Positions 2-20,996 of a stretch of 54,802 nucleotides of DNA are shown piece by piece. The notes under the pieces are model-generated. The model ran no database searches, was not told the DNA's origin, and worked only from the letters and a program-made list of their open reading frames with translations. The translations under genes were made by a program, and so were the position numbers. Position 1 is the first letter of the stretch, and every line of letters begins with the position of its first letter. Source of the stretch: Candidatus Omnitrophota bacterium (lineage in GTDB: Bacteria > Omnitrophota > Gorgyraeia > Zapsychrales > Fredricksoniimonadaceae); contig PEAF01000007.1 of the NCBI GenBank assembly GCA_002753465.1, forward strand, positions 1 to 54,802, in the 5' to 3' direction.

Positions 2-1759
2 ATGTCTTTATCTTACTTGATCGCTCATTCTTCACGGCTGGAAGACGTGGCTTTGCAAGGAAAACTTGTAACGCTTCGCAATGAATTCCTTGGAAGATTA
101 AAACCTTTATTGAGAGCAAAGATCGCGCCTCTTGACCCCGGCGCTTTTCATATTACGACGTTTCCCATGGCTTCGTTATTAGATGAGACGGTAAGGGATA
201 AAGCTAAGAAGATCGTGATGGACTTTACCAGAGATATGCCGGAAAAGTTTCGGCGAAGTACGCCGGCAAAAGTTATCGGGATCGATATGTTTACGCCCAG
301 CGTTATTAAATTTTCTCTTGTGTGGGACCATGAGTTCTTTACTGACCTTGGTCTTTCGATCGAAAATGCGTTGAAGCAAGATGCGGATGTATGGGCTGCT
401 TATGGTCAAGGAAAGGAATGGGAAAAGGCCGGGAAACATATCTTTCATATTACTTTGGGTTCCATCATGGAGCCGCTTACACCTGAAGAGATAGATCAGC
501 TTGTCGATGCGATGGCTATTGAATCAACCCCTGATAAGCACATTGACTTTTCTTTGTCCTCAGGGCAGATGATCACATCTACAGATTCGAATACGCTGGT
601 CTTATGGGATCAAGTTAAGGGAGTGCTTGGTCCGATGGCAGTGCGGACAAGATTAAGTAGAATGTCAAACTTGGCTGTTATTTATTTGCATGGCATGGGT
701 GGAGATATTAACAATAAGGTCGGTCAATGGCTGGAAGAATTGCCGCTCGATATGACTGTGGTGCGATATACCTCATCGAGGATTAGAGAGAAACCGGGGA
801 AAGTAACAAAGGACCAGTTGATAAATTCTGCACCAGAAGGCGCCAAGATTTGGCAATGGTTGGAGGCTAATAAATATCTGATTCCCTCTCAGAAGGATGA
901 CACCGTGCTTGAGATCAATAAGAAGGCAGGGTACACGATCGATGATGTTTTAGATGCCGTTAAAGTGCAATACCCTCAGGAAAATGGCTTTTTGGAGATG
1001 GTCAAGAAGATCGATTGGATCAGTTATACATTTGGGAATAAAGAAACCGATCGTAAAGTAAAGACTTTTGATGATGAAATTCAGGATCTAAAGGATGTTG
1101 TCGATGCGACAATTCAGAAATTTGCTGAACTAGGTCGAGGCCCTTTGCAAATTGTTCTTGTGGGTGAAAGTTTAGGCGGTACGATAGTTCCGATAATTGC
1201 GCACGAACTTGAAGCAAAAGGAGTCAAGGGTATTGTTTCTATAGTCGGGAACTCGGGGTATGAACCTAAAAGCCCGACAGTGATTCTTTCGGAAGAGCAT
1301 CCGATCACGGGTAAAATTCCTGAACAGGAGGAGATGCTCCGGAGGTTTAGGGAGTTTTCCGGTGAAACATTGATTATTCAGGCGGCTGAAGATCATAATC
1401 CTGATCGAAATCCATCTTCCGCCAAATGGCAAGAGAAGCCGCCGTTGGTCGTTCCAGGTGGGCATGATATTAATTCAAGCGGTGAGGATACCGAGAAGGC
1501 GATCAAGGGCGGGTTGAATGGTTTTATTATTTCTTTGAAGGAGCGCTTAGGAGTTCTGGGGAAAGATAGCGCACCGGGTGGTATTGACCTAACCTGTGAA
1601 AAGATGAAGCTTGAGATCCAGGGTTCACGGAGTGGTGTTCAGTTTAAGTTTGATACGGCCATGATCCAGCAATTGCAGAATGCTTCTGGTTTAACTCCAA
1701 TAATTATTGATATTAGACCCATGAAGACAACAGTTTCCAGGTTTTTCGAGCTTCCTTAG
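2..1759 (+). CDS. Probably 5'-truncated modular 'GGID-CTD' family protein: 2H phosphoesterase + alpha/beta hydrolase + conserved C-terminal domain
   Basis: Two HxT motifs (FHITT, FHITL); LHGMGG oxyanion loop, GESLGG nucleophile elbow, candidate Asp (AAED) and His (GGHD); C-terminus DSAPGGIDL...SGLTPIIIDIRP resembles the three downstream paralogs. ORF starts at the window edge and lacks the family N-terminal domain. Confidence 0.8.
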   Translation: MSLSYLIAHSSRLEDVALQGKLVTLRNEFLGRLKPLLRAKIAPLDPGAFHITTFPMASLLDETVRDKAKKIVMDFTRDMPEKFRRSTPAKVIGIDMFTPSVIKFSLVWDHEFFTDLGLSIENALKQDADVWAAYGQGKEWEKAGKHIFHITLGSIMEPLTPEEIDQLVDAMAIESTPDKHIDFSLSSGQMITSTDSNTLVLWDQVKGVLGPMAVRTRLSRMSNLAVIYLHGMGGDINNKVGQWLEELPLDMTVVRYTSSRIREKPGKVTKDQLINSAPEGAKIWQWLEANKYLIPSQKDDTVLEINKKAGYTIDDVLDAVKVQYPQENGFLEMVKKIDWISYTFGNKETDRKVKTFDDEIQDLKDVVDATIQKFAELGRGPLQIVLVGESLGGTIVPIIAHELEAKGVKGIVSIVGNSGYEPKSPTVILSEEHPITGKIPEQEEMLRRFREFSGETLIIQAAEDHNPDRNPSSAKWQEKPPLVVPGGHDINSSGEDTEKAIKGGLNGFIISLKERLGVLGKDSAPGGIDLTCEKMKLEIQGSRSGVQFKFDTAMIQQLQNASGLTPIIIDIRPMKTTVSRFFELP

Positions 1760-1804: not shown

Positions 1805-1834
1805 CGCGGCGGTCAGAAATGGCTGCCGCGTTTT
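1805..1834 (+). terminator. Intrinsic terminator
   Basis: CGCGGCGGTCA-GAAA-TGGCTGCCGCG hairpin followed by TTTT, 45 nt after the stop of the first ORF. Confidence 0.7.
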
Positions 1835-1935
1835 CATTTGGGGGGGGGGGGCTGGCGCCTGTGGCAAGGTGGGGTTTGTATATGTTATCTTTATATATAG
1901 TGGCGTCGTATTTCAACAATAAAACGAGGGACGAT

Positions 1936-4900
1936 ATGTTTTCAAAATTCCTGTCCATTATTCTTTCGTTGTCTTTGCTTTTGACACCAGAGATGGGCTA
2001 CGCACAAAGCGCTTTTGTATCCATGCTCCCCGAGCCGGGCAAGATGGTGGGCGTGTCGTCTGCCTTTACGCCGGTGCTGGTCAAGGGCTTGGTCATCCAT
2101 CCGGATAAGCCGCTTAACTTTGACTTTATTGTTGATTCTGGTAATGATTCAGCCGATCAGGCGATCGTTAAAGATCAGACGGATCGTATGGCTAAATATT
2201 TTCTGGCCGCGATCACAGTGCCTGAAGAGCAATTGTGGGTCAACTTGTCACCCTATGAAAAAGATCGTGTGATCGAGAATGACCTGGGTAATACGGTGCT
2301 CGGGCGCGATATGCTGGCGCAGGATTATTTGCTCAAGCAATTGACCGCATCACTCATTTACCCTGAAGAGGGTTTGGGTAAAGATTTCTGGGCCAAGGTT
2401 TACAGCCAGGCACAGGCTAAGTTTGGCACAACGGATATCCCGGTTGATACGTTCAATAAGGTTTGGATTATGCCTGCCGCGGCTGAGGTCTTTGAAAAAG
2501 GCAATGCGGTTTATGTGACCCAGGCAAAGTTAAAAGTCATGTTGGATAGCGATCGTACCGCTATGGCTGTAGTTGATGAAAGAGCATCGATAGCTAAAGA
2601 AGTAATGCGTCAGATCATTGTTCCCGCTATTGAAAAAGAAGTTAATGAAGGCAAGAACTTTGCCGCCATCCGTCAGGTCTATCACGCCGCTATTTTAGCC
2701 AAGTGGTATCGCGAGCTGATTCAAAACACATTGCTCTCCCAAGCTTATGTCGGCCAGAACAAGATTGAAGGTGTCACATCGGACGAGAAGGCGCTTAAGG
2801 AAGAGATCTATCAACGCTACATCGCCGCCTATAAGAAAGGCGTGTTCGATTACATCAAAGAAACGCCATCAACAGCAGGCGATGCCACGCCTAAGAAATA
2901 TTTCTCAGGTGGCATTTCAGATTTTGCGATGAAGAATGTGCCTCTGAGCAAGACTGAAAACGCGCAGGCCATTGGTGTGTCGGTCGGTCAGACGTTCAAG
3001 ATCGATATGGCCATGGGGAGTTCCAGTGATGCGGTGGATCGCCAAGAAGCGCCAATAGATGAGATCTCTGAAGATATGATCGGTGAGGCGGCGGGTTTGA
3101 CGGCACCGCGCAAGTTCATTACGCCGTACGGTAAGTTGAAAGATCGGGAAGAAAGGTTGAAGAATAATACCTTCGGGATTGTTGAGGTATTCTTTCCTAA
3201 ATCTGGTCCAACGGTCGATCGGATGATGATGTTTATAAATAAACTCAAGGCTGAGTTTGGAGATAAGGTTTACACGCTTGACCAAGAGAGTCTGCATATG
3301 ACCATTCAGGGTCTTGAGCGTCAATGGGATAACAAATCAGCGGGTACGCTTAAGGAATTAACCCGTCATGTTGGAAGGGATACGATCGATGTTAATAAAG
3401 AGCCTGTCGCTGGTGTTCTTCTAAAGGCGCGAGAGATCCCCACAAGCGCTTTTGATGTACAGGTTGCCGGAATGGGTTGGGACCCGGTGGGCGGCATCTT
3501 TTGGAAAATTGAGCCATATTTGCAGGCAGGACAAGCGCAGGATGAGATGGCCAAGAGACGCAGTGCCTGGGATCTACCTTCGTTTCGCGCGCCGCATATT
3601 ACAGCCGCCTATTTTGCACAGCCTTTTAATAAAGAAGAAACATCTCGGTTAAAAGATCTTCTCCGGGAGTATCAGACGACGGTTTTTGGGGATCTTCAGG
3701 TTAATGAATTGCAGGCCATTGCTTATGAAGATTATTCGTTTAACGCCGGCTACAGGATCCTTGAGACAGTATCGTTGGAAAAAGAAGGTTCGTCACCGGC
3801 CAGGAAAATATCCGCTTTGGTCATGGATCTGGCAAAGAGCGGTGTTGTCCCTTCCGTTAATGGTAAGAAGCTTTTTGATATTCTTCAGGCCTCGTCTTCC
3901 GGTGACATGCTGCAATACATCAAGAACAACGGCATTCTTTCCAATGATGCAGATATTATCGCTTTATTGGAAGTCAAAAAAAGAAGTTTAACAGCGCAGG
4001 CGCTTTCCGTTGATGAGAAGGAGCAACTGTCATTGTATGAGATAATCTTTGACGGTCATTTTGATCCAACGGTGCCAATGACAGTGTTTTCAGGGGGTAC
4101 AGGGTCGAATCGACTTACGGAGGCGTTGCTTAGGAAGGGGGCTGTTAATTTAACGCTCTTGCTTAATGCCTATGATGACGGCAAGAGTACCGGTGATATA
4201 CGCAGGAATTTTGATGTATTAGGACCATCGGATATTGCTAAGAATCTTGTTGTTCTGCTTAAAGGCAAACATCCGGCGCTGGCGGAATTTCTGGATCACA
4301 GGTTTCCCAAAGACGCTGATGCCAACACGCTGCGATTGAACGTATTTGCGTTGGCGAGCGGTGCGGGAACCGGTGAGATCAATCAGTTGTTCCAGGGGCT
4401 TGATGTACAGACCCAGGAAATACTAAAGAAATATTTTTCGGCCTTTATTGAGCAGATACATGCTTGGGAACGTGAGAATAAAAAGATCTATAACTTCAAG
4501 GATTATGGCGTTCGGAATATGGTATTTCTGGGTGCATATCTTTATTATGGGAACGATTATGCGAAAGCAATAAACGGACTTATTGCGGACTTTAACTTGA
4601 ATGGCAAGATCGTCTTGAATAACCATGAATCATTGTGGCTGATCGCAGTTACAGAAAACGGAGAGCTGCTTAATTCTGAGGCTGCCGTTGTAGATGGGAT
4701 GTTGGATAAAGAGATCGCCAGGGTTTTTCTTGTCAGGAAGCTTTTGTCTTCTGACGGAGTGAGTGATTTTACACGGAAGCGTACACTCGAGGAAAAATTG
4801 GACTTTATTGAAAAGAAGTTTGCCGTATATCCGCAGGCTACCAAGGAATCCGTGGAAGCTATTGAAGGCGCGCGCACCATTGTGTTTGCGCCGACAACAT

Positions 4901-7900
4901 TCCACTCAAGTCTTTCACCCACGCTTATTACTAAGGGGATCTCTGAGGCACTGGCCAGGTCAAGGGTGCCTAAAGTGCTCATTGCAAATTTGACACGTGA
5001 AAGAGGCCGCCACACTGTCGGAGAGGCTATCCAGGATATAACAAAGCATATGAAGTATGGTGTTGGCGTTTCTCAAGGGAGCGTCATTGATTATGTGGTC
5101 CTTAATACGCACGGATATCAGACTAACGGGGTGTCCAATACCAACAGGTTACCCATTGATATGCAGAAGATCCGTCAGGAGGGTGTTGAGGCGATCTCTA
5201 TTGACGTTGATCCTAAAAGTCAGGGCAAGCACCAGGGTGATGTTACGGCACAGGTCGTTTTGTCTTTGCAGGGAATTAGTGGTCTTGGCTATGCCATTAG
5301 TCAGGGAAGGCTTATCAAAAAGAGCAAGCTTGACCTAAAAGAGGAACGAAGGGCTCAGTTAAAGAAGCTCTTGGCTAGTCCGATCCTGTATGCGCAAAAT
5401 GCAGATAGGGTCGAACGGTTGACGCTGGATATTCTTGAGATTAATAGTCTGAATGAGTTTGTGCCGCGCCGTAATACGAGGACGGTTATTTTAGCAGGTG
5501 GGCGTGCGACAAGGCTCGGGTCGGACGTTGCCAAAGTTCTTTATCCTATTGCTGGCCGATCGAACCTCGAATACTTGATGGACGCTGTATCTGTTGTCGA
5601 TAAGAAGCCATTATTGGTGATCAAGCGGCCTGATATGGAGCAGTTTCAGAATTGGCTTAGCCATCACCCGTCGTATACTCCTGAATTGATCACAGTAAGT
5701 GGTAAAGGTGGGACGGCGAATGCAATTGAGGAGTTACAGCAGGTGTTTAAGCAAAAAGGGGCTGAAGATGTTCTGCTCTTATGGGGAGATATCAGTAATG
5801 TAAGGCAATCGACGCTGCGGCTTTTAGCTGCGGTCCATGAAGCATTGGGTTCTGATATGACGATTCCTACGTCATGGGAAGAAAATCCTTATGCTGGCCT
5901 TTTGCGTAATGAGCGTGGGGAGGTTATAGATGTGTTCTTGACCAAAGAACATCCTGAACAACAACAGTTCTTTGGAGAGCATGACGGTAGCCTGTTTCTT
6001 TTTAAAGTTGATGAAATTATGCCGTTCATTCATCAGGCCATAGAGGAGTCCGGGTACAACGAAGGTCGGACGTCTGAGGTTAACTTTTTAAAAACGATAC
6101 CGCTTATGTCAAAAGCTGGAAAGCAGCTTTCCGGTCTTACCAATATGGATGTTCGTGAGACGGCAGGGTACAATACACAGCAGGAGGCTGAACTTGTTGC
6201 GCAGTATAAGCAAGAATTGAAAGATGGCGTACCCTTAGCACAACAGGATATTCATCCGATGCTGGATTCCGTTAAGTGGGTTGACGAAGCGGTCAATGTG
6301 ACCTATGAAATCAGGCGTGAGCATAAAGAGCGTTTTGACAGGTATGTGTCGTCATCGTATAGCGGGGTTGTTTTTGATGTAGATGATACGTTGACGGAAG
6401 ACGGGGTTGTTTCTGATGAGATGATCGATAAGCTCGTTGCCATGATCAATCAAGGCGTTTCGATCGGATTTATTACGGGCCGGACAAATGATTCGCTGGA
6501 GAGGATATTGCTTTCGAAGATCAAGAACCACCCTCGATTGAACGGCGCATTTCTTAACAATATTTACGTGTATGTTGAGAATGGGACATACGGCTATCGC
6601 TTTGATCAGGGCATATCACAGAAATTTTATGATCAGAAATTATCGGCGCGAGATATAGAGGTTGCGTCATTTTATTTGAGGAAATATATTTTTGGTTTTA
6701 AGGATAATTATTCCATAACTGACCATAAAATCCATATTTGGCCGTATGAGCCATTTAAGCAGGCTGAATATGTGGCTAAGATCCGGGAAATGTTTCGGAT
6801 CATCGGCTTACCGTTCACGGTTTATAAAAGTAATTCCGTTGAGACGACCGGCTCGATTTTGATCGTTAATAATGGTAGTAGCAAGGGGGTTGCGCTTGAG
6901 GACTTTCTATCACAGACAAAGATCGCTGAAGGCCGGGTGGCTAAGATCGGTGATCTCGCAAGGCGGGGGTCTGTTGATTTTGAACTGTTAAAAGGAGCGG
7001 GTAGTTTTACTGTCGGTGAATTTGAGCCTGAGAGTAAGGATCAGGTATCGATAAGGCTGACTTCATCCGAGTTGACCAATGAGGCGAGGACATTTTCACT
7101 ACTCAATGTTCTGAAATTTGAGCCTGCGGCCAAGGACTCTGTCTTGTTGGGGCGCACCGATATTCAGAATGCTGACCACGCCATGACCTCTGCCGAAACC
7201 GTCCGCCTGCTCGATGATGCCCGTGTTATGGCCGGGTTGCATACGACGACGGAAAATGGGCAGTTTGGCACTGTTCTTAAGGAGCAGGGGCCGGCGGCTA
7301 TCGTTCGCCTGGCGCAGGAACTTAAGAATAACGGCATACCACCGGTGTTTGATTCTCCGGAGGCGCTTGAGGGGTTCCGGGCGTCAAATATGGATGATAA
7401 GGGTAAGACGGACACGGTTACCGGATTTTTTGTCACCAATGATGTGGCTGGTGCGCGCGCCGGGATCGCGGCGGGGGCGGACTTTCTTGTCGCTATTGAA
7501 TATCTTACGCCAGAAACCATCAAGGCTTTGAAGGTATTGAAGCCGTCAGTGGCTGTTATCAATGTGATCGCACAAAAAGATAAAGACGGGACGTTCATCA
7601 CATTGAAGGACGCGGATGTTATGGCTTTGGTCAAGGATTCGGTCGAGGCCGGGGCTGACGGTATTCAGTTAAAGCCGTTCATGAATTTTGTTACGGATGG
7701 TACTTTTGCTGTTGCCAGCGACGCGCTCAAGGCGATACGTGCTCAGTATCCGGATCTTTTGATCAATGGCGCCGGAGCGATCTTTGGCGAGCGTTACACC
7801 AATGTCCTTAAGATGTCGGAGAATATCCTGCCATCGGTCGGCTTTGCCAATGAGGGTTCAGTGGCCGTTGATGCGGAAAGTTATCGTCAGGCGATTGCTA

Positions 7901-10536
7901 GTAAGCTGACGGTGCAGTTCTCAGAGCTTTTGAAGAATGATATAGAAGAAAAAGATCTGCCTCAGGATATCGACGTCCTTATGATTCCTGGTACTGAATA
8001 TTTCAATGTGTATGAGAAGATTTTGGATTTAAAGGCGCGTGGTGTTGGAAGACATATTCTTATTTCTGGAGGAACGGGGAGGGTAACAATCGATATTAAG
8101 CGGATTGCTGATGCGAGGGGTTTTAAGGTTGATAAGTCTAACGAGGCGGACATGATACTTTCGATCATGAAGCAGATGACATTAAGACATATCAGCGTTG
8201 CATCTGATGATAAAGAAGTTAAGAAGTGGCAAAGTGTGCTGGATTATCTTGAGAGTAGCGATGTGATGCTGGAAAAAAGAGCTAGCTTTACGGTTGATAA
8301 CTTCTTGAAAGCCAAAGAGATTCTCAAGGATAGAAAATTATTATTGTCGGGTAACGCTAAGCCGCTAAAGATCCTTTACATTCATAAACCCGTACAGCAA
8401 TTGCGCACCCGAGGGAATTTCGAAAGCGTGTTCAGTCAGGAGATGACGGATCACCAAATTGAGGGCATCAGTTTTACGACCACATATGCGCCGAATGCCA
8501 AGGTCATTTTTGATATTGTCGGTGAGTTCTTCCGGATCATTGCCAACGGGCAGAAAGGTGATTGGCTTTTGAGGACAGGTAATTGGGATCCGGCTAAGAG
8601 TTATGCTGTTGTTCCTGATGTGCGCTGGGGTCAGGCGCTTGCGCTTTTTAAGGGAATGAGTGCTGAAGATAAAAATGAATTGGTCGATGTGCTGTGGACG
8701 AATGTGGTCAATATGGGGATGACGGCGGACAAAGTGTTGGCGAAGTTGCCAGAAGCCGTTGCACCGTTGGCTAAAGCGATCCTGGACCATCATGAGGCTA
8801 TGGAAAACAGCAAGGCCGCTCTGGCCGGTACGTCAACGTCGTCTGCTTTGTTGTCCAATGTTTCCGACGCAGCCATGTCACCTGAATTGATCGCCACGGC
8901 GGTTTTGGGCTTTGGTGTTGGCCTAGCCGGATTTGTTAAGCTCATTAACCGGTATTCGTTCGACCTCTTTAAGAAAGATGTGACGGCAAAGACGGTTGAA
9001 CATCAGGCGGAGCGTTATGCCGGTGCTGGTGATTCCGAGCGTGGGGCATTGTTGTCATTTTATGTCAGAGTCCTGGAAGAAGGCGTGAATACCGCCCTGC
9101 AGCAAAAGATCAAGACCCTCTTGCAGGGATTGGCTGTTCTTGAGGCGCGCGAGGGCAATTACCGGGTCATTACGGAGCTGGAGAGTCTGTCCCATCGTCA
9201 GGATGTTTCGCTGGCGACGCGCAGCCTGTTCGCGGAAATCTTAAGAGAGCTGATCGCTATCTTTGGCCGCTTACGTGCCTCTAACACGGGTGAGGCGGGG
9301 GCCCAGGCGTACAGGGCCCTGGAGAAGATCAAGGAGATCACAGCGTTCAACGTTGACGCGGCGCAGAACGATAGCGTCGAAAATCAGGTCGTGGAAGATG
9401 TTAACAGTGCGTCTGCGGCATGGAAGGCCAATGTTTCAGATGCGGCCATGTCTAATGAAGTTTTGCAATGGTTGATCAAAACCTACCCGATGCTGAAGTT
9501 CGTTGGTGTCATGACGCCAATGGCTGCGACGGCTGGTGTCTCGCGGGCCTGGGCTTTGTATACGGCCGCCGGGAATATCACAAGAGCGAAGCGCGGTGTG
9601 ATCGATGCCATCCTTTGGCTTATTCGTAATAATGCGGTAGCTGCCGGGAAAGTCCTCAACGCGGCGCATCTTTCAGATCGCCGGATTCAGCAAGCTCTAA
9701 AGGCCGGACAGGATCCATATCTGGTGGGCATTGTCTTACGTATTCATGCTTCTCAGCCCAAGTCTTTTCTGGATTTGGCAAGGTCCATGGGTGCAACGGG
9801 CAAGCCGCTGCTGGAGGCCCAGATCGAACGTGCCAAGTTGCGCCGGGTGGATGCTCAGGAGTGGCTCATCCGTAATATTTCCACACCAGCCAAGGATTTT
9901 GTAGAGAAAAACGGGTTGAAATTCAATTTATCGGATGAGGGGATCATAGATGCTCTGGTAGAGATGAGGGATCCTCAGCAGGAATTTTTAAGGCAGGAAG
10001 CGGCTACGCGGATCCTGAGGACCCGTGGAGAGACGCGTGCTGGCCTGGATTTACTGATAAAGCTTAAGGCGACCTACCAGACGATCGAGCAGTCGGGAAA
10101 TATGAATAAGAACCGGTTGGTTAATGAGATGGCGTTGCTTTCGCAGAATAATGATCCGATCGTACGTGACCGGATCAGCAGGGAGTTGCTGGCGCTTAAA
10201 ACGGATGTGATTGACGGTGAAGCAATGGCTAATGCGCATGCGGCATTGTTAGCCGCTCGGGATAATATTCAGCCTGTCGCCGTGCCCCCAGACGCCATGA
10301 TCATTGAGGGCTCTGGTTCCAGCAAAGACCGTTGGCTTGGGGATGCCAACATTGACGGTGGTATCGACATTAAGAACATTGATGTCAAAAAGACGGGCAA
10401 TGTCAGGATACAGTTCAATGACCAGGCCGTGCGGGATGTGCTGGCCAATGGCTTTAACGGGTTCACGCCGGTCATCCTTAACATTACGCCCATGAAGGAT
10501 CCGTTGATGGCCCTGGGGATCGTTCCGGGGGTTTAA
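1936..10536 (+). CDS. Giant (~2866 aa) secreted modular protein: signal peptide, conserved N-terminal domain, 2H phosphoesterase, CofD/YvcK-like, GlmU-like nucleotidyltransferase, HAD phosphatase, TIM-barrel aldolase-like, DUF218-like, two helical modules, GGID C-terminal domain
   Basis: Start moved to ATG 1936 (GAGGG RBS; signal peptide MFSKFLSIILSLSLLLTPEMGYAQ). Motifs: LHMT/PHIT (2H); FSGGTG, NAYDDGKSTG (CofD/UPF0052); ILAGGRATRLGSDVAKVLYPIAG (NTP transferase); FDVDDTL, ITGRT, SKG, KIGD (HAD); ISGGTG, NEA, LEKRASFTVDNF (DUF218); GGIDIKNIDV. Confidence 0.85.
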   Translation: MFSKFLSIILSLSLLLTPEMGYAQSAFVSMLPEPGKMVGVSSAFTPVLVKGLVIHPDKPLNFDFIVDSGNDSADQAIVKDQTDRMAKYFLAAITVPEEQLWVNLSPYEKDRVIENDLGNTVLGRDMLAQDYLLKQLTASLIYPEEGLGKDFWAKVYSQAQAKFGTTDIPVDTFNKVWIMPAAAEVFEKGNAVYVTQAKLKVMLDSDRTAMAVVDERASIAKEVMRQIIVPAIEKEVNEGKNFAAIRQVYHAAILAKWYRELIQNTLLSQAYVGQNKIEGVTSDEKALKEEIYQRYIAAYKKGVFDYIKETPSTAGDATPKKYFSGGISDFAMKNVPLSKTENAQAIGVSVGQTFKIDMAMGSSSDAVDRQEAPIDEISEDMIGEAAGLTAPRKFITPYGKLKDREERLKNNTFGIVEVFFPKSGPTVDRMMMFINKLKAEFGDKVYTLDQESLHMTIQGLERQWDNKSAGTLKELTRHVGRDTIDVNKEPVAGVLLKAREIPTSAFDVQVAGMGWDPVGGIFWKIEPYLQAGQAQDEMAKRRSAWDLPSFRAPHITAAYFAQPFNKEETSRLKDLLREYQTTVFGDLQVNELQAIAYEDYSFNAGYRILETVSLEKEGSSPARKISALVMDLAKSGVVPSVNGKKLFDILQASSSGDMLQYIKNNGILSNDADIIALLEVKKRSLTAQALSVDEKEQLSLYEIIFDGHFDPTVPMTVFSGGTGSNRLTEALLRKGAVNLTLLLNAYDDGKSTGDIRRNFDVLGPSDIAKNLVVLLKGKHPALAEFLDHRFPKDADANTLRLNVFALASGAGTGEINQLFQGLDVQTQEILKKYFSAFIEQIHAWERENKKIYNFKDYGVRNMVFLGAYLYYGNDYAKAINGLIADFNLNGKIVLNNHESLWLIAVTENGELLNSEAAVVDGMLDKEIARVFLVRKLLSSDGVSDFTRKRTLEEKLDFIEKKFAVYPQATKESVEAIEGARTIVFAPTTFHSSLSPTLITKGISEALARSRVPKVLIANLTRERGRHTVGEAIQDITKHMKYGVGVSQGSVIDYVVLNTHGYQTNGVSNTNRLPIDMQKIRQEGVEAISIDVDPKSQGKHQGDVTAQVVLSLQGISGLGYAISQGRLIKKSKLDLKEERRAQLKKLLASPILYAQNADRVERLTLDILEINSLNEFVPRRNTRTVILAGGRATRLGSDVAKVLYPIAGRSNLEYLMDAVSVVDKKPLLVIKRPDMEQFQNWLSHHPSYTPELITVSGKGGTANAIEELQQVFKQKGAEDVLLLWGDISNVRQSTLRLLAAVHEALGSDMTIPTSWEENPYAGLLRNERGEVIDVFLTKEHPEQQQFFGEHDGSLFLFKVDEIMPFIHQAIEESGYNEGRTSEVNFLKTIPLMSKAGKQLSGLTNMDVRETAGYNTQQEAELVAQYKQELKDGVPLAQQDIHPMLDSVKWVDEAVNVTYEIRREHKERFDRYVSSSYSGVVFDVDDTLTEDGVVSDEMIDKLVAMINQGVSIGFITGRTNDSLERILLSKIKNHPRLNGAFLNNIYVYVENGTYGYRFDQGISQKFYDQKLSARDIEVASFYLRKYIFGFKDNYSITDHKIHIWPYEPFKQAEYVAKIREMFRIIGLPFTVYKSNSVETTGSILIVNNGSSKGVALEDFLSQTKIAEGRVAKIGDLARRGSVDFELLKGAGSFTVGEFEPESKDQVSIRLTSSELTNEARTFSLLNVLKFEPAAKDSVLLGRTDIQNADHAMTSAETVRLLDDARVMAGLHTTTENGQFGTVLKEQGPAAIVRLAQELKNNGIPPVFDSPEALEGFRASNMDDKGKTDTVTGFFVTNDVAGARAGIAAGADFLVAIEYLTPETIKALKVLKPSVAVINVIAQKDKDGTFITLKDADVMALVKDSVEAGADGIQLKPFMNFVTDGTFAVASDALKAIRAQYPDLLINGAGAIFGERYTNVLKMSENILPSVGFANEGSVAVDAESYRQAIASKLTVQFSELLKNDIEEKDLPQDIDVLMIPGTEYFNVYEKILDLKARGVGRHILISGGTGRVTIDIKRIADARGFKVDKSNEADMILSIMKQMTLRHISVASDDKEVKKWQSVLDYLESSDVMLEKRASFTVDNFLKAKEILKDRKLLLSGNAKPLKILYIHKPVQQLRTRGNFESVFSQEMTDHQIEGISFTTTYAPNAKVIFDIVGEFFRIIANGQKGDWLLRTGNWDPAKSYAVVPDVRWGQALALFKGMSAEDKNELVDVLWTNVVNMGMTADKVLAKLPEAVAPLAKAILDHHEAMENSKAALAGTSTSSALLSNVSDAAMSPELIATAVLGFGVGLAGFVKLINRYSFDLFKKDVTAKTVEHQAERYAGAGDSERGALLSFYVRVLEEGVNTALQQKIKTLLQGLAVLEAREGNYRVITELESLSHRQDVSLATRSLFAEILRELIAIFGRLRASNTGEAGAQAYRALEKIKEITAFNVDAAQNDSVENQVVEDVNSASAAWKANVSDAAMSNEVLQWLIKTYPMLKFVGVMTPMAATAGVSRAWALYTAAGNITRAKRGVIDAILWLIRNNAVAAGKVLNAAHLSDRRIQQALKAGQDPYLVGIVLRIHASQPKSFLDLARSMGATGKPLLEAQIERAKLRRVDAQEWLIRNISTPAKDFVEKNGLKFNLSDEGIIDALVEMRDPQQEFLRQEAATRILRTRGETRAGLDLLIKLKATYQTIEQSGNMNKNRLVNEMALLSQNNDPIVRDRISRELLALKTDVIDGEAMANAHAALLAARDNIQPVAVPPDAMIIEGSGSSKDRWLGDANIDGGIDIKNIDVKKTGNVRIQFNDQAVRDVLANGFNGFTPVILNITPMKDPLMALGIVPGV

Positions 10537-11246: not shown

Positions 11247-11325
11247 GTGTTTAGCCTGCCTTGCTTTACTATCTCTATATAATATATACTTCAAGTGGTG
11301 GCTTATATAACCGTTAAGGGTGGCT

Positions 11326-14300
11326 ATGGTCTATTCGCTGATCAAAAGATGTATTAGTGCTTTTATGGTTGTGGCATTTATGGCCACAGGCATTGTTACG
11401 CCTTCATATGCCCAGAATGCCATGAACCTGCCTGTACCCGGCACGTTGACCGGCATAAGCCGATCCATGCATCCCGTTACTCTTCAAGGCCTTAAGGTTG
11501 ATCCCCAACAGCCTTTTCGTTTCAAGTTCCTGGTTGCCAAGGGGGATTCAGGCAAGGCTGATCCAGCCGAAACCGACAAGCTGGTCAGGTATTTCTTTAA
11601 CGCGCTGACGACCCCTGAAAAAGAGATGTGGGTCAACTTGTCACCGATCGAGGGCGACCGCATTGTGGCCCCTGAATTCGGGCTTACGTCCATGGGGCGT
11701 GATCTCTTGAGCCTCGATTATATCCTTAAGCAGGTAACCTCATCGCTCATGTACCCCGAGGATGCGACCGGCAAGGCTTTCTGGAACAATGTCTATTCAA
11801 AGGCGCATGATCTTTTCGGCACGACAGATATCCCGACCGATGTGTTCAATAAAGTGTGGGTTGTTTCCAGCAAGGCCAAGGTTTATGAAAACGGTGGTTC
11901 TGTTTATATCACGGAAGATACGCTGGATGTGATGCTGGACAGCGACCATGCGCTGACTAAGGTCAATGGACAGGCCGCGGATAATTCTCCGGCCGCCGAA
12001 ATGATCCGGCAGGCGATCCGCGAGAATATTCTGCCTATCATCAAGAAAGAAGTGAATGAGGGCGAACAGTTCGCTGCGTTGCGCCAGGTGCATCGGTCGC
12101 TTATTCTGGCGACCTGGTACAAGAAACGCCTGAAGGATTCGCTGTTGGCGCGTGCCTATGGCGACCGGAATAAGATCGCGGGTTTAACGCACAATGACCC
12201 GATGGTCATTGACAGTATTTACAGCCGTTACGTTGAAGCGTTCAAGCAGGGTGTTTACAACTATGTGCGGGAAGATAAGGATATTTATTCTGGCGATGTT
12301 TTACCCCGCAAGTATTTCGCGGGTGGTATGCAGATCGCCGTTACGCTTGATGCGACTGGGACGGCCCAGGACGTGCAGGCGCCGGCCAATGCGTTTGAGG
12401 TTCAGACCTTTGATGCGCTGCCCATCGGTGCGGAGATCGATAGCTTGGTTTCATCGGACGATAAAGCGCAGCAGGTTGGCAAGGCCATTCTCGGGTACTT
12501 GTCGCGGCATGCGCTGATGTTGACGCTTGCAACTTTTATTTCGCTTTCGGGGACGCAGGCGATTGCGCTCGATACTGATCCGGCTGGCTTTTCCAATAGA
12601 GTGGTCAAAGCGTTGAAAGCGCTGGAAAACCCTAATACCAAGTTTGTGCCCAGCCATGTGAATATGCCGGGTCTTGAAAACATTGCTTTTACGTATGATC
12701 TTTCTGTGGAGGCGGCGGCGTATAAAGCAGCAGGGCAGGATGGTCCAGCGCGCAATACCATGAATGCCATTGTTCAGGGTTTCTCCAGTACCCGTATGAC
12801 GAGGGAGTATAAGGGGCATAAAGGTTTTGTGAACTCTGTTAACATTCGCACCGGCAATATGGGCGGTGAAAATGAGGTAACGCCGGGGCCTAATGCCTGG
12901 ATCGGCCTTGTGGCTTTGCTCGTTGATCCCAAAGAGTATCTGCCGCTGGCACAGAAGATGGGGGATCTTTTGCTCGCCATGCAAGGCACGGATGGTGGCA
13001 TCCTGGATGGTGACCGGAATCCTGATATGGTCATTACCGAGCCGCATATGGACGGCGTGGCTTTGTTCGAGAGATTGTACGACGTAACGGGCCATAATAA
13101 ATGGAACGCGGCGGCACAGCGCGGCAGGCATTATTTCAAAAAACATCTATATTCCGTTTCGCAGGGAACTATTGTGCGCAGCCTGAACGATCCTGAAGAC
13201 ATCTTTGCGACTGACGCTTATTCCTGGTCATTGTTAGGTAAGACAGGCGATGAGCTGCCGTTGAAAGAACTTAAAACATTGATCACGAACCTTCTGAGCA
13301 AATCACTGGTGCGCGTTGAGGCGCCGGTGCCTGGCGGGAAAGTCAAGACGCTGACGCTGGTCGATTACACAGACCCGCGTTCCGCCCATGCGCTGCGTTA
13401 TCGCGGCGGTTTGCATCCGGTGGGTTCTGTGGAGTGGACGAGCGGCGTCATCATGGCTTTACAGAAAGCAGCCGTACGCCTGGCATCATCGGGCGATATG
13501 CCGACGGCAAAATTATACAAGGCCATTGCCGAAGAGCTTTTACAGCAGGTCCATGATGCGTTCGGGGCGCTGCCCAGCGGGGAGCTGATGTCGTATTATG
13601 CCACAGAGTCAGGTGTGGATACGACGCATGGATGGAAGACTCCCGGTCCGACGGGTGCTTACCAGGGCAGTCCCGTAGGCGCTTGGGTGTTGCTTCCAAT
13701 GATGCATGTGGACCCTTTCTCGGGTAAGAATTACGGTCAGGCTTATGGCAAGATCCAGGCGGATGATCACAAAAAGGCGGCGCGCGATTTTATGGATACA
13801 GCCGTTAGCGGTAAGACATATTCTGTCGTTAAGAAGAGCGTTATAGCCGGAACAGCCTTGACGCCGGATGGGGGCGATGCGTTGAACAAGTCATCGGCAA
13901 CATCTTTTACTTTTAATGCCGGGGATGTTCAGTCATACGCCAGTGATGAGTGGAAAGCTAAGTCGTATTATGTCGTATTGCCTAAAGAGGTTGAATTGAA
14001 GACAGGGCAGGAAGTCAGGATAGAGTATTCTTTAAATGGATCTGATGTGATGGCGGTTCAGCTTGTGGCCAGGGGCCAGTCGCCGGATTCACAGGAAGGC
14101 CTTGAGGTCAAAAAGGGAGTCAAGGGGGTCCGTAAGGTAGTTGCCGTTGTGGCTCAAAAGATAATGGCTTTAAAACAGATCGTCCTTCATGTTGGACCGA
14201 ATGCCTGGGGGGCGCTGGGTGGTTCAATGAGTGCCACGGCGAATATCCATAAGGTTGATGTGATCGATAAGGCAGCGAGCGTTGGTGGTATTGATTTTGA

Positions 14301-14463
14301 AAAGATCGATCTGGGCATTGATGCGAAGAGCGGTGCGATGTCCTTTGAAGTGAATGAAGAATTTGTGACGGCTTTTCAGGAGCGCTTGCTGGGCATTCAG
14401 CCGCTCCTGATCAATAGCCAGCCGTTAAGTAATGTTGCATCATTCATGAATAGCCCCAAGTAG
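11326..14463 (+). CDS. Secreted modular GGID-CTD family protein with (alpha/alpha)6 glycosidase-like cargo and possible beta-sandwich carbohydrate-binding module
   Basis: Signal peptide ending PSYAQ; diverged copy of the family N-domain (WVNLSP, MGRDLL..DY.LKQ.T.SL.YPE, PRKYF.GG); cargo motifs shared with 17053-18804; C-terminal GGIDF...GIQPLLINSQP. Alternative GTG start at 11320. Confidence 0.8.
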   Translation: MVYSLIKRCISAFMVVAFMATGIVTPSYAQNAMNLPVPGTLTGISRSMHPVTLQGLKVDPQQPFRFKFLVAKGDSGKADPAETDKLVRYFFNALTTPEKEMWVNLSPIEGDRIVAPEFGLTSMGRDLLSLDYILKQVTSSLMYPEDATGKAFWNNVYSKAHDLFGTTDIPTDVFNKVWVVSSKAKVYENGGSVYITEDTLDVMLDSDHALTKVNGQAADNSPAAEMIRQAIRENILPIIKKEVNEGEQFAALRQVHRSLILATWYKKRLKDSLLARAYGDRNKIAGLTHNDPMVIDSIYSRYVEAFKQGVYNYVREDKDIYSGDVLPRKYFAGGMQIAVTLDATGTAQDVQAPANAFEVQTFDALPIGAEIDSLVSSDDKAQQVGKAILGYLSRHALMLTLATFISLSGTQAIALDTDPAGFSNRVVKALKALENPNTKFVPSHVNMPGLENIAFTYDLSVEAAAYKAAGQDGPARNTMNAIVQGFSSTRMTREYKGHKGFVNSVNIRTGNMGGENEVTPGPNAWIGLVALLVDPKEYLPLAQKMGDLLLAMQGTDGGILDGDRNPDMVITEPHMDGVALFERLYDVTGHNKWNAAAQRGRHYFKKHLYSVSQGTIVRSLNDPEDIFATDAYSWSLLGKTGDELPLKELKTLITNLLSKSLVRVEAPVPGGKVKTLTLVDYTDPRSAHALRYRGGLHPVGSVEWTSGVIMALQKAAVRLASSGDMPTAKLYKAIAEELLQQVHDAFGALPSGELMSYYATESGVDTTHGWKTPGPTGAYQGSPVGAWVLLPMMHVDPFSGKNYGQAYGKIQADDHKKAARDFMDTAVSGKTYSVVKKSVIAGTALTPDGGDALNKSSATSFTFNAGDVQSYASDEWKAKSYYVVLPKEVELKTGQEVRIEYSLNGSDVMAVQLVARGQSPDSQEGLEVKKGVKGVRKVVAVVAQKIMALKQIVLHVGPNAWGALGGSMSATANIHKVDVIDKAASVGGIDFEKIDLGIDAKSGAMSFEVNEEFVTAFQERLLGIQPLLINSQPLSNVASFMNSPK

Positions 14464-14500
14464 AGTAATTGAGAACATTTTGATTTACTGGGAGATGGCT

Positions 14501-17023
14501 GTGGCAATAAAGGAAATACTTTGCAGCGTTCTTTCTTTATCGCTTTTCCTGTCGCCCGAAATGTCTTATGCTCAAAGCGCTTTTGTGTCGACGCTCCCTG
14601 TGCCGGGAAAGATGGTGGGCATATCCGCGCCATTTACGCCCGTGCTTGTGAAGGGCTTGGTGATCCATCCTGATCAGCCGCTGAATTTTGATTTCATTGT
14701 CGATTCCGGGAACGATGTGACCGATCAGGCCGTCATCAAAGAGCAGAGCAGCCGTCTGGCTAAATATTTTCTCGCCGCCGTAACAGTTCCCGAATCCCAG
14801 TTGTGGGTGAATTTGTCTCCGTATGAAAAAGATCGCGTTATTGAGAATGAGCTGGGCACGACCGAACTTGGTCGCGACATGCTGGCGCAGGATTATTTAC
14901 TTAAGCAGCTGACGGCATCACTCATCTACCCAGAAGAAGGTTTAGGTAAGGATTTCTGGGCGAAGGTTTACAGTCAGGCACAGGCTAAATTCGGCACAAC
15001 GGATATTCCGGTCGATACATTCAATAAAGTTTGGATCATGCCAGCCACGGCTGAGGTATTTGAGAAGGGCAATGCCGTTTATGTGACCCAGGCACGTTTG
15101 AAGGTAATGCTTGATTCGGATTATGTTGCGATGAGCAATGTGATGGGCGTAGGGGAGGACCTTGTGTCCTCCCAAAAACGGGCGGACATAAAGTCCGCCC
15201 CTACGCACGAATTAACAAAGAGCCTCTTGCGTGAGATCATCCTCCCCGCCATCGAAAAAGAGGTCAATGAAGGCAAGAATTTTGCCGCGATCCGTCAGAT
15301 TTATCACACCGCTATTTTAGCCAAGTGGTATCGCGAGCTGATCCAGAATACACTCCTCTCTCAGGCATATGTCGGTCAGAACAAAGTTGAAGGCATTACA
15401 TTAGACGAGAAGGCACTCAAGGAAGAGATCTATCAGCGTTACATCGCCGCTTACAAGAAGGGCGTCTTTGACTACATTAAAGACGAAGATGTTGTAGGGG
15501 AGGACCTTGTGTCCGCCCGCATGCCAAGGAAATACTTCTCGGGCGGTATTTCTGATTTTGCGATGAAGAATGTTCCATTGAGCAAAACCAATGATGCCCG
15601 TGCCGTAGCGCCGGCGGTCGGTGATACTTTTAAAGTGGATCTGGCGATGGGCACTGTTGAGAGCCGGGAAGAATTGAAGGCATTGGCCGATGCCCGTCTT
15701 TCATGGCTGATTGAGCATGATCCGAAATTTGCCACCCAACTTGCGATCCTGGGAAAGAATCTGCCTGGTATTATTTTGCGCAAGAAGGCGCATGTCGTGA
15801 ACGTTTACTGGTTCTTTTATTTGTTCCGTCAGAAGCAATTTGAGACCCTCTATCACTTGTTGTCAGACAAGGAGAGGGATGGTGGGAATAAGGTTGTGCA
15901 TGATGCGTATAAGTCTCAGCTTAAACGACTTTCACGGATGTACAGGTCTCTTGGTCCCGATATGCAGGACAGGCTTTTGACTGTTCTTATTTTGCATGAT
16001 ATCGGATCCGTCGAGGGCGCCTGGGATTGGACACACCATGTGCGTGGTCGTGATATGGTCAAGCGCATACTTGAAGATAAAAGGTTAGGATTTGAGCCCA
16101 GTGAAGTCGAGGTCATCGCGGATGCTGTTTTTAATCATGGCATTGTCAGTAATATCGGGGTCGATTTCCTTCCTGAGGATTTTGCAAGGTTTTCAGCCAA
16201 AGAAAAAGACTTTTACATCCTAATGTCATTTGCTGATTTGATGGCAAATAAGGATGGTGAAACCAATGGCGCAACGCGCTTTAACCTTGATTATTTACTG
16301 GGTTTGCAGGAGCGTTTTGAGTCATTCAAGACAGTAGAGGATAAATTTCTTAAGTACAGGTTTGGAAAATTCTTCAGGCCTTTTGCGATGAAGAGTGAGA
16401 AAATGGATAACAACTATGCCGAGGTTATGAAGGAACTTGAACGGTTAAGCGGGGATGACCTTGGCCGTGTGAAAGCCATCTGGCAGAACCGCATCCGTGT
16501 GAATATGTTCGGGCTCTTCATGTCGTTGGGGGAAGATAGCCGGGAAAATTTTGCGCGCCTTGTTTACCAGGTCGCTAAGAAAGTCATGGCTGAAGATCCT
16601 GTCAGTGGCGATATTTACCTTGAAACCGAGGTTGATTTTATGGGGTTGGATTTTCAAGGCAATAGTCCGTCTTTTGTCCTGCGGTCTAAATATGTGTCTG
16701 GTGTGCGTCACATATTGGCTAGTGGTGGTGATATCCCGATGCATTTTAGAGAGAAGGATGGGCAAACGCAGCTTGTGATAGAGTTGGAAAATATACTTGG
16801 GCTTCAAGGTGGGCCTGACGCAGCGAACGGTCAGGATGTGACGAACGGTGGTATTGATATCAGGAACATTGACGTTAATAAGGCCGGCAGTGCCAGGATA
16901 CAGTTCAATGACCAGGCGGTTCGAGACGTGCTGGTCCATGGCTTTAATGGCTTTACGCCGGTGATCATTAAGATCACACCAGCTATTGACCCTTTAGCGG
17001 CGTTGGGTATAGTTAAACTGTAA
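14501..17023 (+). CDS. Secreted modular GGID-CTD family protein with HD-domain cargo
   Basis: Start GTG 14501 (GGAG upstream) or ATG 14495; N- and C-terminal domains nearly identical to 1936-10536; cargo has LILHDIG...HH.RG...NHG...FAD HD-superfamily pattern. Confidence 0.8.
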   Translation: MAIKEILCSVLSLSLFLSPEMSYAQSAFVSTLPVPGKMVGISAPFTPVLVKGLVIHPDQPLNFDFIVDSGNDVTDQAVIKEQSSRLAKYFLAAVTVPESQLWVNLSPYEKDRVIENELGTTELGRDMLAQDYLLKQLTASLIYPEEGLGKDFWAKVYSQAQAKFGTTDIPVDTFNKVWIMPATAEVFEKGNAVYVTQARLKVMLDSDYVAMSNVMGVGEDLVSSQKRADIKSAPTHELTKSLLREIILPAIEKEVNEGKNFAAIRQIYHTAILAKWYRELIQNTLLSQAYVGQNKVEGITLDEKALKEEIYQRYIAAYKKGVFDYIKDEDVVGEDLVSARMPRKYFSGGISDFAMKNVPLSKTNDARAVAPAVGDTFKVDLAMGTVESREELKALADARLSWLIEHDPKFATQLAILGKNLPGIILRKKAHVVNVYWFFYLFRQKQFETLYHLLSDKERDGGNKVVHDAYKSQLKRLSRMYRSLGPDMQDRLLTVLILHDIGSVEGAWDWTHHVRGRDMVKRILEDKRLGFEPSEVEVIADAVFNHGIVSNIGVDFLPEDFARFSAKEKDFYILMSFADLMANKDGETNGATRFNLDYLLGLQERFESFKTVEDKFLKYRFGKFFRPFAMKSEKMDNNYAEVMKELERLSGDDLGRVKAIWQNRIRVNMFGLFMSLGEDSRENFARLVYQVAKKVMAEDPVSGDIYLETEVDFMGLDFQGNSPSFVLRSKYVSGVRHILASGGDIPMHFREKDGQTQLVIELENILGLQGGPDAANGQDVTNGGIDIRNIDVNKAGSARIQFNDQAVRDVLVHGFNGFTPVIIKITPAIDPLAALGIVKL
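15149..15204. repeat. REP doublet (REPIN-like) inserted in frame in a CDS
   Basis: GTAGGGGAGGACCTTGTGTCCTCCC followed by an inverted copy GGGCGGACATAAAGTCCGCCCCTAC; GTAG foot plus short palindrome. Confidence 0.75.
15494..15518 (+). repeat. Single REP-like element in frame in a CDS
   Basis: GTAGGGGAGGACCTTGTGTCCGCCC, 24/25 identical to 15149-15173. Confidence 0.75.
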
Positions 17024-19580: not shown

Positions 19581-20996
19581 ATGGCATTTGCAATGATGAA
19601 AAACAAGGGCTTGCGGCTGATAATGGGGATATTCTTTGTGACGGGGGCGGGGCTTTCCCTGGCAGATACCGATGAAAATTCCCGTCGGGTGGAAGAAAAA
19701 AAACGTGTGATCATCGATCAGGCTCCCTTGAATGAGGTCGTGCACAGAAAAGAATATTCTTTTGAGTCCGGCGGATGGCTCAATTACCGTATCAGCGATT
19801 ATGATGAACTGGACAATGACCGGACCGAGAAGGATTACTTCACGCGATCCCTACGCGCGGATGTCCGCTTATGGGGCCGGCTGACATATCGCCCATCAAC
19901 AGCCAGCGACCCTGACAAAGATTATATCTATATGCGTATCAAAGATATTTATACCGAACTTCAGGGGACTGAGCCGGGCGCGCGTTTTGACAATCGCGGG
20001 CCGCAAGTGGATTATGCTTATATGGGCATGGATCATAATCCCTGGAAGGTAGAGGCCGGGCGTCGCTACTTCATTATAGGGCGCGGCATTGCCTATAGCG
20101 GCGTACATGACGGTGTTCAGGTTAATTATCAGCCGGCGGGATTGAATTGCACCGGTTTTATATCTCAATTGCCGCCACACACGAGCAATATCGACACGAG
20201 CGTGCCTGGCTATGACAAGGAAAGCCGGCGTTATTTCGCGGGAGCCGGTATCGCGCTTACCAAGATGAAGCAGCATCAGATCTATACCTACACTGTTTTA
20301 GAGCGCGACCACAGCCGTGAGCGGCCTGAAAATCCATTTCAGGATTACAGATATGATGCCGAGTATTTTGGCCTCGGTTCAAACGGGCAGTGGGCCGATC
20401 AATGGCCGTACTGGGCCGAGATTATCCGTGAGACCGGGTATTCGCGTGAATTCCCTTCGAATGCGCGCAGTAATATTTCGGCCTGGGCATTTGACGCTGA
20501 GCAGAAATTCTCGACGAAGTGGGCATCGAAGGTGGTTTTCAGTGCTGAGGGGGCCTTGGGTTCCGGGGATGGTGACCGGGAGGTTCCGACCAATACGGTC
20601 TATGGCAATAGGTCCGGCCGTGACCACGGCTTTTCGTACTTTGGTTATTTACCGACAGGCGCCGCGCTTTATCCGGCCTTATCTAATCTGCGCCTGCTGC
20701 GTTTAGGGGTCGATGCGTATCCGTTTTATCGCATTGATCTTTTGCGTAAGATATTGCTGGGCGTCGATTACTATCATTATTGGAAAGATCGTTCTGACGG
20801 CGGATTTTCAGATCTTGACGCCACAGTTGCCCGGCGTGATATCGGCCAGGAGATCGATCTGAAGGCCGACTGGTGGGTTACCAAAAAGGTTTTCTTATCG
20901 GCGGAATGGGGGAGTTTCCTGCCCGGCAAGGCGTATGACCGTTCGCATCGCAGTGAAACACAGGTTGTTTCACTGAGCATGAGTGTGATATTCTAA
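19581..20996 (+). CDS. Alginate export (AlgE-like) family outer-membrane beta-barrel
   Basis: Signal peptide, amphipathic beta strands, GSGDGD and DIGQEIDL motifs, C-terminal Phe; start may be 19593/19596. Confidence 0.65.
   Translation: MAFAMMKNKGLRLIMGIFFVTGAGLSLADTDENSRRVEEKKRVIIDQAPLNEVVHRKEYSFESGGWLNYRISDYDELDNDRTEKDYFTRSLRADVRLWGRLTYRPSTASDPDKDYIYMRIKDIYTELQGTEPGARFDNRGPQVDYAYMGMDHNPWKVEAGRRYFIIGRGIAYSGVHDGVQVNYQPAGLNCTGFISQLPPHTSNIDTSVPGYDKESRRYFAGAGIALTKMKQHQIYTYTVLERDHSRERPENPFQDYRYDAEYFGLGSNGQWADQWPYWAEIIRETGYSREFPSNARSNISAWAFDAEQKFSTKWASKVVFSAEGALGSGDGDREVPTNTVYGNRSGRDHGFSYFGYLPTGAALYPALSNLRLLRLGVDAYPFYRIDLLRKILLGVDYYHYWKDRSDGGFSDLDATVARRDIGQEIDLKADWWVTKKVFLSAEWGSFLPGKAYDRSHRSETQVVSLSMSVIF

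Follow-up and report, generated by a model that had tools for sequence, protein, structure and literature searches.

Where are the borders in a bacterial protein that strings several unrelated enzymes into one chain, and are they marked? The question is raised by a 54,802-nt stretch of the genome of a Candidatus Omnitrophota bacterium (contig PEAF01000007.1, positions 1 to 54,802; hereafter the window), in which four adjacent genes on the + strand, here called A, B, C, and D, encode members of one protein family and in which a short peptide, Asp-x-Ala followed by Met or Gln (DxAM or DxAQ), recurs where one module gives way to the next. An earlier note on this DNA had proposed that the peptide is a protease-recognition or export-pacing motif that releases individual enzymes from a polyprotein. 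We find that DxAM, and in the source genome also DxAQ, is the signal found at the junctions of a very large family of Omnitrophota proteins with signal peptides. The motif occurs at the end of the constant N-terminal head, 5-10 residues ahead of the GGID that opens the constant tail, and between or flanking the cargo cassettes that lie in the middle.

The family proteins share a four-part plan consisting of a signal peptide, a head, mutually unrelated cargo, and a tail, and most are 0.5-3 thousand amino acids (aa) long. The signal peptide is of the Sec type and, read by eye from the sequence, ends in x-A-Q in genes B, C, and D and their paralogs; among 36 paralogs this end is nearly uniform (SYAQ, SHAQ, VSAQ, and the like), with the same A-Q pair as in DxAQ. 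The head spans ~330 aa and ends in KYFSGG, and the tail spans ~65 aa, starting with GGID and ending with G-F-x-P-V-I-x-x-I-x-P; the tail is present in 161 of the 197 family proteins that we collected from outside the source genome. The source genome (2.18 Mb, 64% complete) holds 36 head-bearing and 33 tail-bearing open reading frames (ORFs). Outside it, the head has 7909 cluster representatives at E<=1e-3, whose named sources are nearly all Candidatus Omnitrophica or Omnitrophota, with one record labelled Desulfobulbaceae, and a sampling of 61 genomes of the phylum and 301 of the class found it in 3 and 36, respectively. The head alignment (window 1939-2937) has 46 invariant columns, among them Ser104 (in W-V-N-L-S-P-x-E) and Lys133 (in D-Y-x-L-K-Q; both numbered from gene B aa 41), and such conserved polar residues could form an active site. 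Cysteine is nearly absent (frequency 0.0013 across 119 external family proteins), as expected of proteins that work outside the cytoplasm. Models of the type IX secretion system C-terminal domain and of Por_Secre_tail in Pfam and NCBIfam gave no match for genes A to D.

The excess of the motif in gene B alone is compatible with chance: DxAM occurs 5 times against 0.42 expected and DxAQ once against 0.72, and although DxAM ranks second among 2105 gapped tripeptides, this is not significant after correction for ~8000 patterns. It is the family-wide counts (P from 1e-11 to 1e-93) that refute an effect of chance or composition, to which we now give practically no credence. The 44 family ORFs of the source genome (50,502 aa) contain 35 DxAM against 8.4 expected (P = 6e-12) and 44 DxAQ against 13.1 (P = 1.5e-11); no fourth residue besides Met and Gln is enriched, DxAV and DxAL included, and 1258 non-family ORFs used as a control are without excess (0.91x for DxAM and 1.46x for DxAQ). 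Of the 197 external proteins, 155 with a recognisable head end and GGID were kept and 42 dropped, and in their deep cargo DxAM occurs 137 times against 12.0 expected (P = 7e-93), first among 6924 patterns, in a set chosen for likeness to the heads of genes B and D and including related cargos; the reversed motif MA.D occurs 12 times against 12.0. Elsewhere in these proteins, observed against expected DxAM is 115/2.5 for the 60 aa past KYFSGG, 59/1.1 for the 30 aa ahead of GGID, 13/0.8 for the tail, and 8/5.1 for the head. In the region from head end to GGID, D at position 1, A at position 3, and M at position 4 are each seen 313 times against 15.3 expected, and Q at position 4 is seen 65 times against 26.4, so that the three core residues D, A, and M each stand ~20-fold above expectation; preferences in the flanks and at position 2 are only slight (Pro at -1, Leu at +1, Ser or Thr at +2, small residues at position 2). 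The signal in the source genome lies mostly outside the deep cargo: a motif follows within 60 aa of the GG in 26 of 35 heads, and among 33 tails the 16 aa ahead of GGID hold DxA[MQ] in 10 and DxA in 21.

The motif keeps to the borders of modules, both those defined by domain models and those defined by shared homology. In the 23 external proteins with Pfam matches (33 were scanned, and 10 without matches were dropped), just one of 43 deep DxAM falls inside a Pfam stretch where 9.2 would be expected (P = 4e-4); a Pfam edge is found no more than 25 aa away for 14 of the 43, but for only 15.4% of random positions. Cassettes are shuffled between family proteins, and of the 705 ends of BLAST blocks shared between cargos, 76 (10.8%) lie within 10 aa of a DxAM, against 4.8% for random positions, with the controls DxAK and DxAL flat. 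In gene B, homology blocks end at aa 2324-2365, around its first NVSDAAMS, and the module that begins around DHAM and ends there is followed by DAAM in both gene B and P0091, by NAAM-GGID in the external protein P0074, and by SSSPV in P0076 and P0160. Successive deep motifs are separated by 68 gaps in all, of which 15 are no longer than 20 aa (5-18 aa) and 42, of domain size, exceed 100 aa. Cassettes thus often carry the motif as a doublet, with one copy at either end of a short spacer rich in Q, T, and P.

What lies directly behind the motif looks like the beginning of a protein. Internal DxAM runs into the start of receiver domains (M-L-S-G-K-R-I-L-V-V-D-D). Tat-like signals follow DxAM at 8 of 189 sites, against 1% for random positions, and six of these are convincing; Sec-like or transmembrane hydrophobic segments follow at 24 of 189, against 4.1%. 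A non-family homologue could be found in the source genome for only 10 of 198 modules, 8 of which are not TPR repeats, and in 7 of these 8 the motif Met is offset by between -4 and +4 aa from the initial Met of the stand-alone homologue. The modules behind the motif are complete proteins with native N-termini, some of which have kept their own signal peptides.

The motif is selected as a peptide. The earlier note had drawn this conclusion from the two NVSDAAMS copies of gene B, which, as it said, differ only at synonymous positions (4 of 24 bases); the copies share a 21-aa junction stretch, identical at 12 of 21 residues, with no homology beyond it. Codons at the motif vary as they do family-wide, both for Asp (GAT 53, GAC 26) and for Ala (GCG 30, GCT 23, GCC 20, GCA 6).

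A further result, new in this analysis, is that the junction is written in dialects, one per genome: DxA[MQ], [ST]SP[ILVM], or NxA[VI]L. Among the 155 external proteins, DxA[MQ] is found in 132 and [SA]SP[IVLM] in 22, and both in only 10, so that the two mutually avoid each other (Fisher odds ratio 0.075, P = 1.6e-6), and [SA]SP[IVLM] stands at the places of DxA[MQ], namely 11 and 36-41 residues past KYFSGG, 10 aa ahead of GGID, and in the deep cargo. Counts of DxA[MQ], [STA]SP[ILVM], and NxA[VI]L, taken after the head, are 20/0/0 in genome G140, 17/0/0 in G316, 14/0/0 in G225, 8/0/0 in G164, 7/0/0 in G241, and 6/0/0 in G330; the second dialect has the majority in G288 (2/26/0), G276 (1/19/0), G057 (1/10/1), G084 (2/8/0), G145 (0/8/0), G325 (2/7/0), G302 (0/5/0), and G085 (0/4/0), and the third in G206 (1/0/12). 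None of the three dialects was found in G187 (3 proteins) or in the single-protein genomes G169, G244, G240, G163, and G215. In fuller form the third dialect reads T-N-[AS]-A-[VI]-L, with 12 copies in 4 proteins of G206 (loci L079-L082). Another peptide looked for as a possible joint, R-S-E-x-R, is absent from the family (1 in 220,152 aa), and in the source genome it gave only 4 single chance hits.

The dialect tracks the genome rather than the lineage of the head. In a first head tree, 13 of 16 proteins of the S type were mutually adjacent, so that effects of lineage and genome were inseparable and a multi-genome tree was needed. In that tree, of 127 heads, two D-type heads of G225 are sisters to three N-type heads of G206 (support 0.965), four D-type heads of G316 are sisters to two S-type heads of G302 (support 0.97), and three G206 proteins group with one G225 protein (support 0.93-0.95), while paralogs of one genome are spread over several head clades and have one dialect in common. 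G225 and G206 are assigned to one genus, and G288 to the same family. When G225 and G206 proteins are compared column by column, few motifs (1 of 5 and 1 of 6) fall opposite a motif of the other dialect, because the linkers themselves align poorly. A dialect that follows the genome argues for a reader encoded by that genome and against a passive scar, and it would fit recognition in trans, for example by a protease.

A number of observations weigh against reading the motif as a processed junction. The counts in the external set are inflated by the choice of that set for likeness of heads and by its related cargos. In the deep cargo of the source genome alone the signal is weak (DxAM 9 against 5.1, P = 0.075; DxAQ 17 against 7.9, P = 0.003), and deep DxAM is absent from 86 of the 155 external proteins. 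There are borders without a motif: gene B aa 400-1785 comprises four domains and contains no DxA[MQ], the gene B border near aa 2020 has none, and neither does the NDK/His_Phos border in P0018 or the receiver/hexokinase border in P0093. At most 7 family ORFs were sampled in each other genome (G057 gave 13), and no head column was found that tracks the dialect in the sister pairs. Nor does the source genome offer an obvious enzyme: at 64% completeness it has only ordinary candidate peptidases, namely two S41 (C42:26428-26925 and C19:7328-7804), one S26, and one C39-like (C4:3198-3611), none tied to the motif, and no S8, rhomboid, or TraB/Tiki peptidase was found in it. The sole S26 signal peptidase found (C104:3358-3876, - strand) lies ~2 kb from a family member on the same strand (C104:171-1196), a proximity that may be due to chance in a 2.2-Mb genome with at least 36 family members.

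Some copies of the motif, moreover, may not be junctions. The earlier note had read SDFAM and IDMAM as a linker closing the N-terminal domain of gene B, and homology between genes B and D does stop just past DMAM, as does model confidence; both copies nevertheless lie in a confidently folded head. In an AlphaFold2 model of the gene B head (85-sequence alignment, mean predicted local distance difference test score [pLDDT] 82, predicted template modelling score 0.84), pLDDT is 90-93 from just past DFAM to DMAM, DMAM closes a strand, and confidence falls to ~55 right behind it. These values suggest that the two head-end copies belong to the fold, with the second marking its true end, and that they may be structural rather than free linker. 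The copy within the tail, F-D-P-A-M/Q, reads F-D-P-A-E in S-dialect genomes and is probably structural too, since it stays DPAE in genomes of another dialect. The earlier note had suggested looking for a protease or autoprotease activity in the N-terminal domain; the head matched neither a protease-like nor any other recognisable fold. Foldseek against the PDB gave a best E of 0.13 at a template modelling score of ~0.1, with ClyA-type helical toxins (probability 0.05) in the top rows, and a VIA-wide search gave a best Z of 3.5, which is at noise level. A profile search of PDB sequences with the head returned only Huntingtin HEAT repeats, matched through cargo columns, and in the ESM Atlas all matches were hypothetical clusters from Omnitrophota.

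What, then, might the motif do? We rank proteolytic processing first, as the best explanation of the motif, at a confidence somewhat short of even. A genome-encoded factor would read the motif in trans, as the dialects suggest; our guess is that this reader is an endopeptidase, and that it would cut between Ala and Met or Gln, so that head and tail would come free and each enzyme would be released with a native-like N-terminus. A cut at this position would make sense of the internal signal peptides that are retained and of the motif doublets around spacers, and a cut after Ala of the kind made by signal peptidase is a lead. The earlier suggestion of a protease-site or export-pacing motif accordingly stands in so far as it describes a selected peptide signal at module borders that avoids Pfam domains and varies among genomes; the part that calls for a cognate protease has found no enzyme to match. 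Among 36 tail-less external proteins, no ORF ends in DxA followed by a stop, as naturally split forms would. A rival account, which we consider unlikely though deserving of attention, keeps the chain intact and takes the motif as a recognition or boundary element bound by a non-proteolytic partner (the head, a chaperone, or the export machinery) or serving as a folding cap. The two head copies are embedded in the fold of the head, the tail copy sits at an apparent helix start, small residues are favoured at position 2 and Pro at -1, there is a weak alignment of the head extension with the start of the tail (20 columns, hhalign probability 41%), and dialects per genome would fit any co-evolving binder. 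A cap leaves unexplained, however, why the motif stands behind the preceding domain and is repeated after a 5-18 aa spacer, intact Tat or Sec signal peptides behind internal copies could not work within an uncut chain, and the constancy of the in-tail copy across dialects shows structural and junction copies to behave differently.

Processing must also be set against two explanations that start from the Met. If genes had been joined in frame from their ATG behind a D-x-A adaptor, through shuffling of cassettes inside each genome, the motif would be an inherited fusion scar without present function; the Met does coincide with native start Mets, signal peptides were brought along, cassettes are plainly shuffled among proteins, and the paralogs of a genome have a common dialect. 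A scar would not be expected, however, to hold D, A, and M so far above expectation while their codons drift, to stand ahead of the tail, which has no need of a start Met, or to lack any Met in the S and N dialects, and heads of one clade with different dialects in different genomes would require concerted replacement, so that we think this account improbable. The same alignment of the Met with native starts could mean that the motif Met codons are internal translation starts and that the giant ORF doubles as a polycistronic message, in which case the signal peptides behind the Met would function; in the S-dialect genomes (L034-L126 subset), GTG accounts for 16 of the 38 Val codons at position 4, against a background of 21%. 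Yet no Shine-Dalgarno-like or other conserved RNA word was found upstream of the motif Met, the upstream D and A are kept as residues and not as codons, DxAV and DxAL show no enrichment, translation could not start at the position-4 codon in 35 of the 92 S-dialect copies and 10 of the 12 N-dialect copies, and DxAQ is as common as DxAM in the source genome. We regard internal initiation as very improbable.

Within the window, the D-x-A-M/Q sites listed earlier for genes B, C, and D (SDFAM, IDMAM, VDLAM, ADHAM, two NVSDAAMS, VDAAQ, and DDKAQ) are all present, each within 3 nt of the position given there, as are the DSA, DKA, and DAA ahead of GGID in genes A, C, and D. Gene A (2-1759, + strand) is the C-terminal part of a family member whose cargo has weak alpha/beta-hydrolase matches, with the tail GGID at 1577-1588 and the in-tail DTAM at 1652-1663. 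Its N-terminal part forms the end of contig C127, where the final residues of a head-bearing ORF are the first residues of gene A (window 2-120), a repeat that points to an assembly break inside one family gene. Gene C (11320-14463, + strand) has DKAQ at 12460-12471, 45 aa past KYFAGG, and DKA ahead of its tail GGID (14284-14295). Gene D (14480-17023, + strand) has a head 81-83% identical to that of gene B, DFAM at 15554-15565, DLAM at 15638-15649, a weak HD-domain cargo, and the tail GGID at 16847-16858.

Gene B (1819-10536, + strand; 2905 aa) has its likely true start at an ATG at 1939, followed by a Sec-type signal peptide, read from the sequence, that ends in GYAQ (1939-2010); this end x-A-Q is shared by its paralogs. 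The head with its ordered C-terminal extension runs from 2011 to 3015, with KYFSGG at 2896-2913, the first head-end motif DFAM at 2920-2931 inside the folded extension, and DMAM at 3004-3015, where the last head strand ends. Cargo block 1 (3016-7173) consists of a 2H-like region that bears two HxT motifs, CofD (aa 755-1129), an NTP-transferase (aa 1222-1416), and HAD-IIB (aa 1517-1742). The earlier note was right that no DxA[MQ] occurs inside this block, and its suggestion that the block is a single unit is compatible with the data, although two inner borders carry peptides resembling the other dialect: SSPA at the 2H/CofD border (3790-3801) and ASPI at the border of CofD and the NTP-transferase (5374-5385). 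The SSPA aligns to a true SSPL junction of the external protein P0150, a hint that the gene B block may derive from an S-dialect lineage. DHAM follows at 7174-7185, with homology blocks starting at aa 1765-1801 (P0008, P0074, and P0127), and the column of P0074 aligned to it (aa 1786) reads QAAM. It does separate HAD from the next module, as had been noted, but the "TIM-barrel" read there (aa 1790-2020) is without Pfam support. Cargo block 2 (7186-8856), which gives a weak DUF218 hint, comprises two modules, one spanning roughly aa 1790-2023 and the other aa 2001-2334, and the motif is absent from the border that they share; the modules after HAD-IIB have no Pfam names. The first NVSDAAMS (8857-8880) lies within a 21-aa extended junction (SSAL..NVSDAAMS), and directly behind it is a hydrophobic, transmembrane-like segment (8881-8955; 19-aa Kyte-Doolittle mean above 1.6 at aa 2355-2358). 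DAAQ (9355-9366) and the second NVSDAAMS (9430-9453) come next, the latter followed by a module beginning NEVLQW that also stands behind DxAM in P0013, P0014, P0028, P0107, and P0129, and the chain closes with the tail domain, GGID...FNGFTPVILNITP (10357-10533). Orthologues of gene B aa 1700-2620 in the near length class were limited to gene B itself.

Downstream of gene D, gene E (17053-18804, + strand) encodes a stand-alone protein with a signal peptide and neither head nor tail. Its sequence matches the cargo of P0189 and P0099, whose motif Met aligns to the gene E start, and it is a free copy of a cassette adjoining the family genes. Directly 3' of the family cluster (19581-22702, + strand) are genes for an outer-membrane barrel resembling Alginate_exp (E = 2e-14) and for a protein resembling DUF748/AsmA (E = 3e-115), which are possible candidates for envelope partners of the exported family.

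Several known systems share features with this family. In viral polyproteins, cleavage-site motifs of the 3C or NS3 type mark protein borders, and there as here a short peptide stands at the borders of complete proteins within one ORF and varies in wording by lineage, as if co-evolving with its reader. Unlike viral polyproteins, the Omnitrophota chains are encoded in cellular genomes, by dozens of ORFs in each; they begin with a Sec signal peptide, have constant caps at head and tail, and are candidates for processing. MARTX toxins, in which effector modules are freed by an in-cis cysteine protease domain, are likewise bacterial proteins with swappable enzyme modules between constant ends. The analogy with them that the earlier note had drawn fails at its defining feature, as neither this domain (Peptidase_C80) nor RTX repeats gave a match in genes B, C, and D (Pfam and NCBIfam, E<=0.01), and unlike in MARTX the cargo consists of metabolic-type enzymes rather than toxin effectors. 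Polymorphic toxins have junction motifs, VENN in CdiA and PxxxxDPxGL in Rhs, that form one junction ahead of one C-terminal toxin, and in them too a short conserved peptide parts constant from variable regions and cassettes are exchanged there; the Omnitrophota chains differ in having several junctions, whole-protein cassettes, varying codons, and genome-specific dialects.

The closest comparison is with the giant and very long proteins described from the same phylum in two preprints (bioRxiv 10.1101/2023.11.21.568195; bioRxiv 10.64898/2026.06.07.730766), which have the same kind of multi-enzyme, signal-peptide, transmembrane-bearing architecture, and from which our family differs in its mostly smaller size. 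The first of these proposed that the giants are cleaved and, in the text available to us, stated that the cleavage points are unknown (West-Roberts et al., 2023); the available portion of the second mentions no junction or processing, and neither head and tail caps nor a junction motif is mentioned in what is accessible of either. Searches of the literature for GGIDL, DxAM variants, and Omnitrophota giant proteins likewise brought up no account of either the caps or the motif in the accessible texts. A family with at least 7909 head cluster representatives, present in 36 of 301 genomes of the class, thus has caps and joints that are undescribed in the literature found.

The finding bears on a question that concerns the multi-enzyme and giant proteins of Omnitrophota in general, namely whether they remain one chain or are cut up, for which the accessible text of the 2023 preprint gives the missing cleavage points as the obstacle. 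A sharp junction motif with genome dialects makes this question directly testable: the motif is the best candidate for where the chains are read or cut, and the variation in dialect provides a handle for finding the reader, as a gene that co-varies with it. The motif also supplies a rule for dividing these ORFs into their component proteins, in annotation and in structure prediction. It is conceivable, although on balance we lean against it, that these ORFs are bacterial "genes of genes", in which whole proteins, a part of them with export signals of their own, are lined up after a shared head and set free at a mark of four residues private to each genome. If this were true, it would imply a dedicated, fast-co-evolving processing enzyme, and dozens of enzymes in these bacteria would be organised in this way in place of operons.

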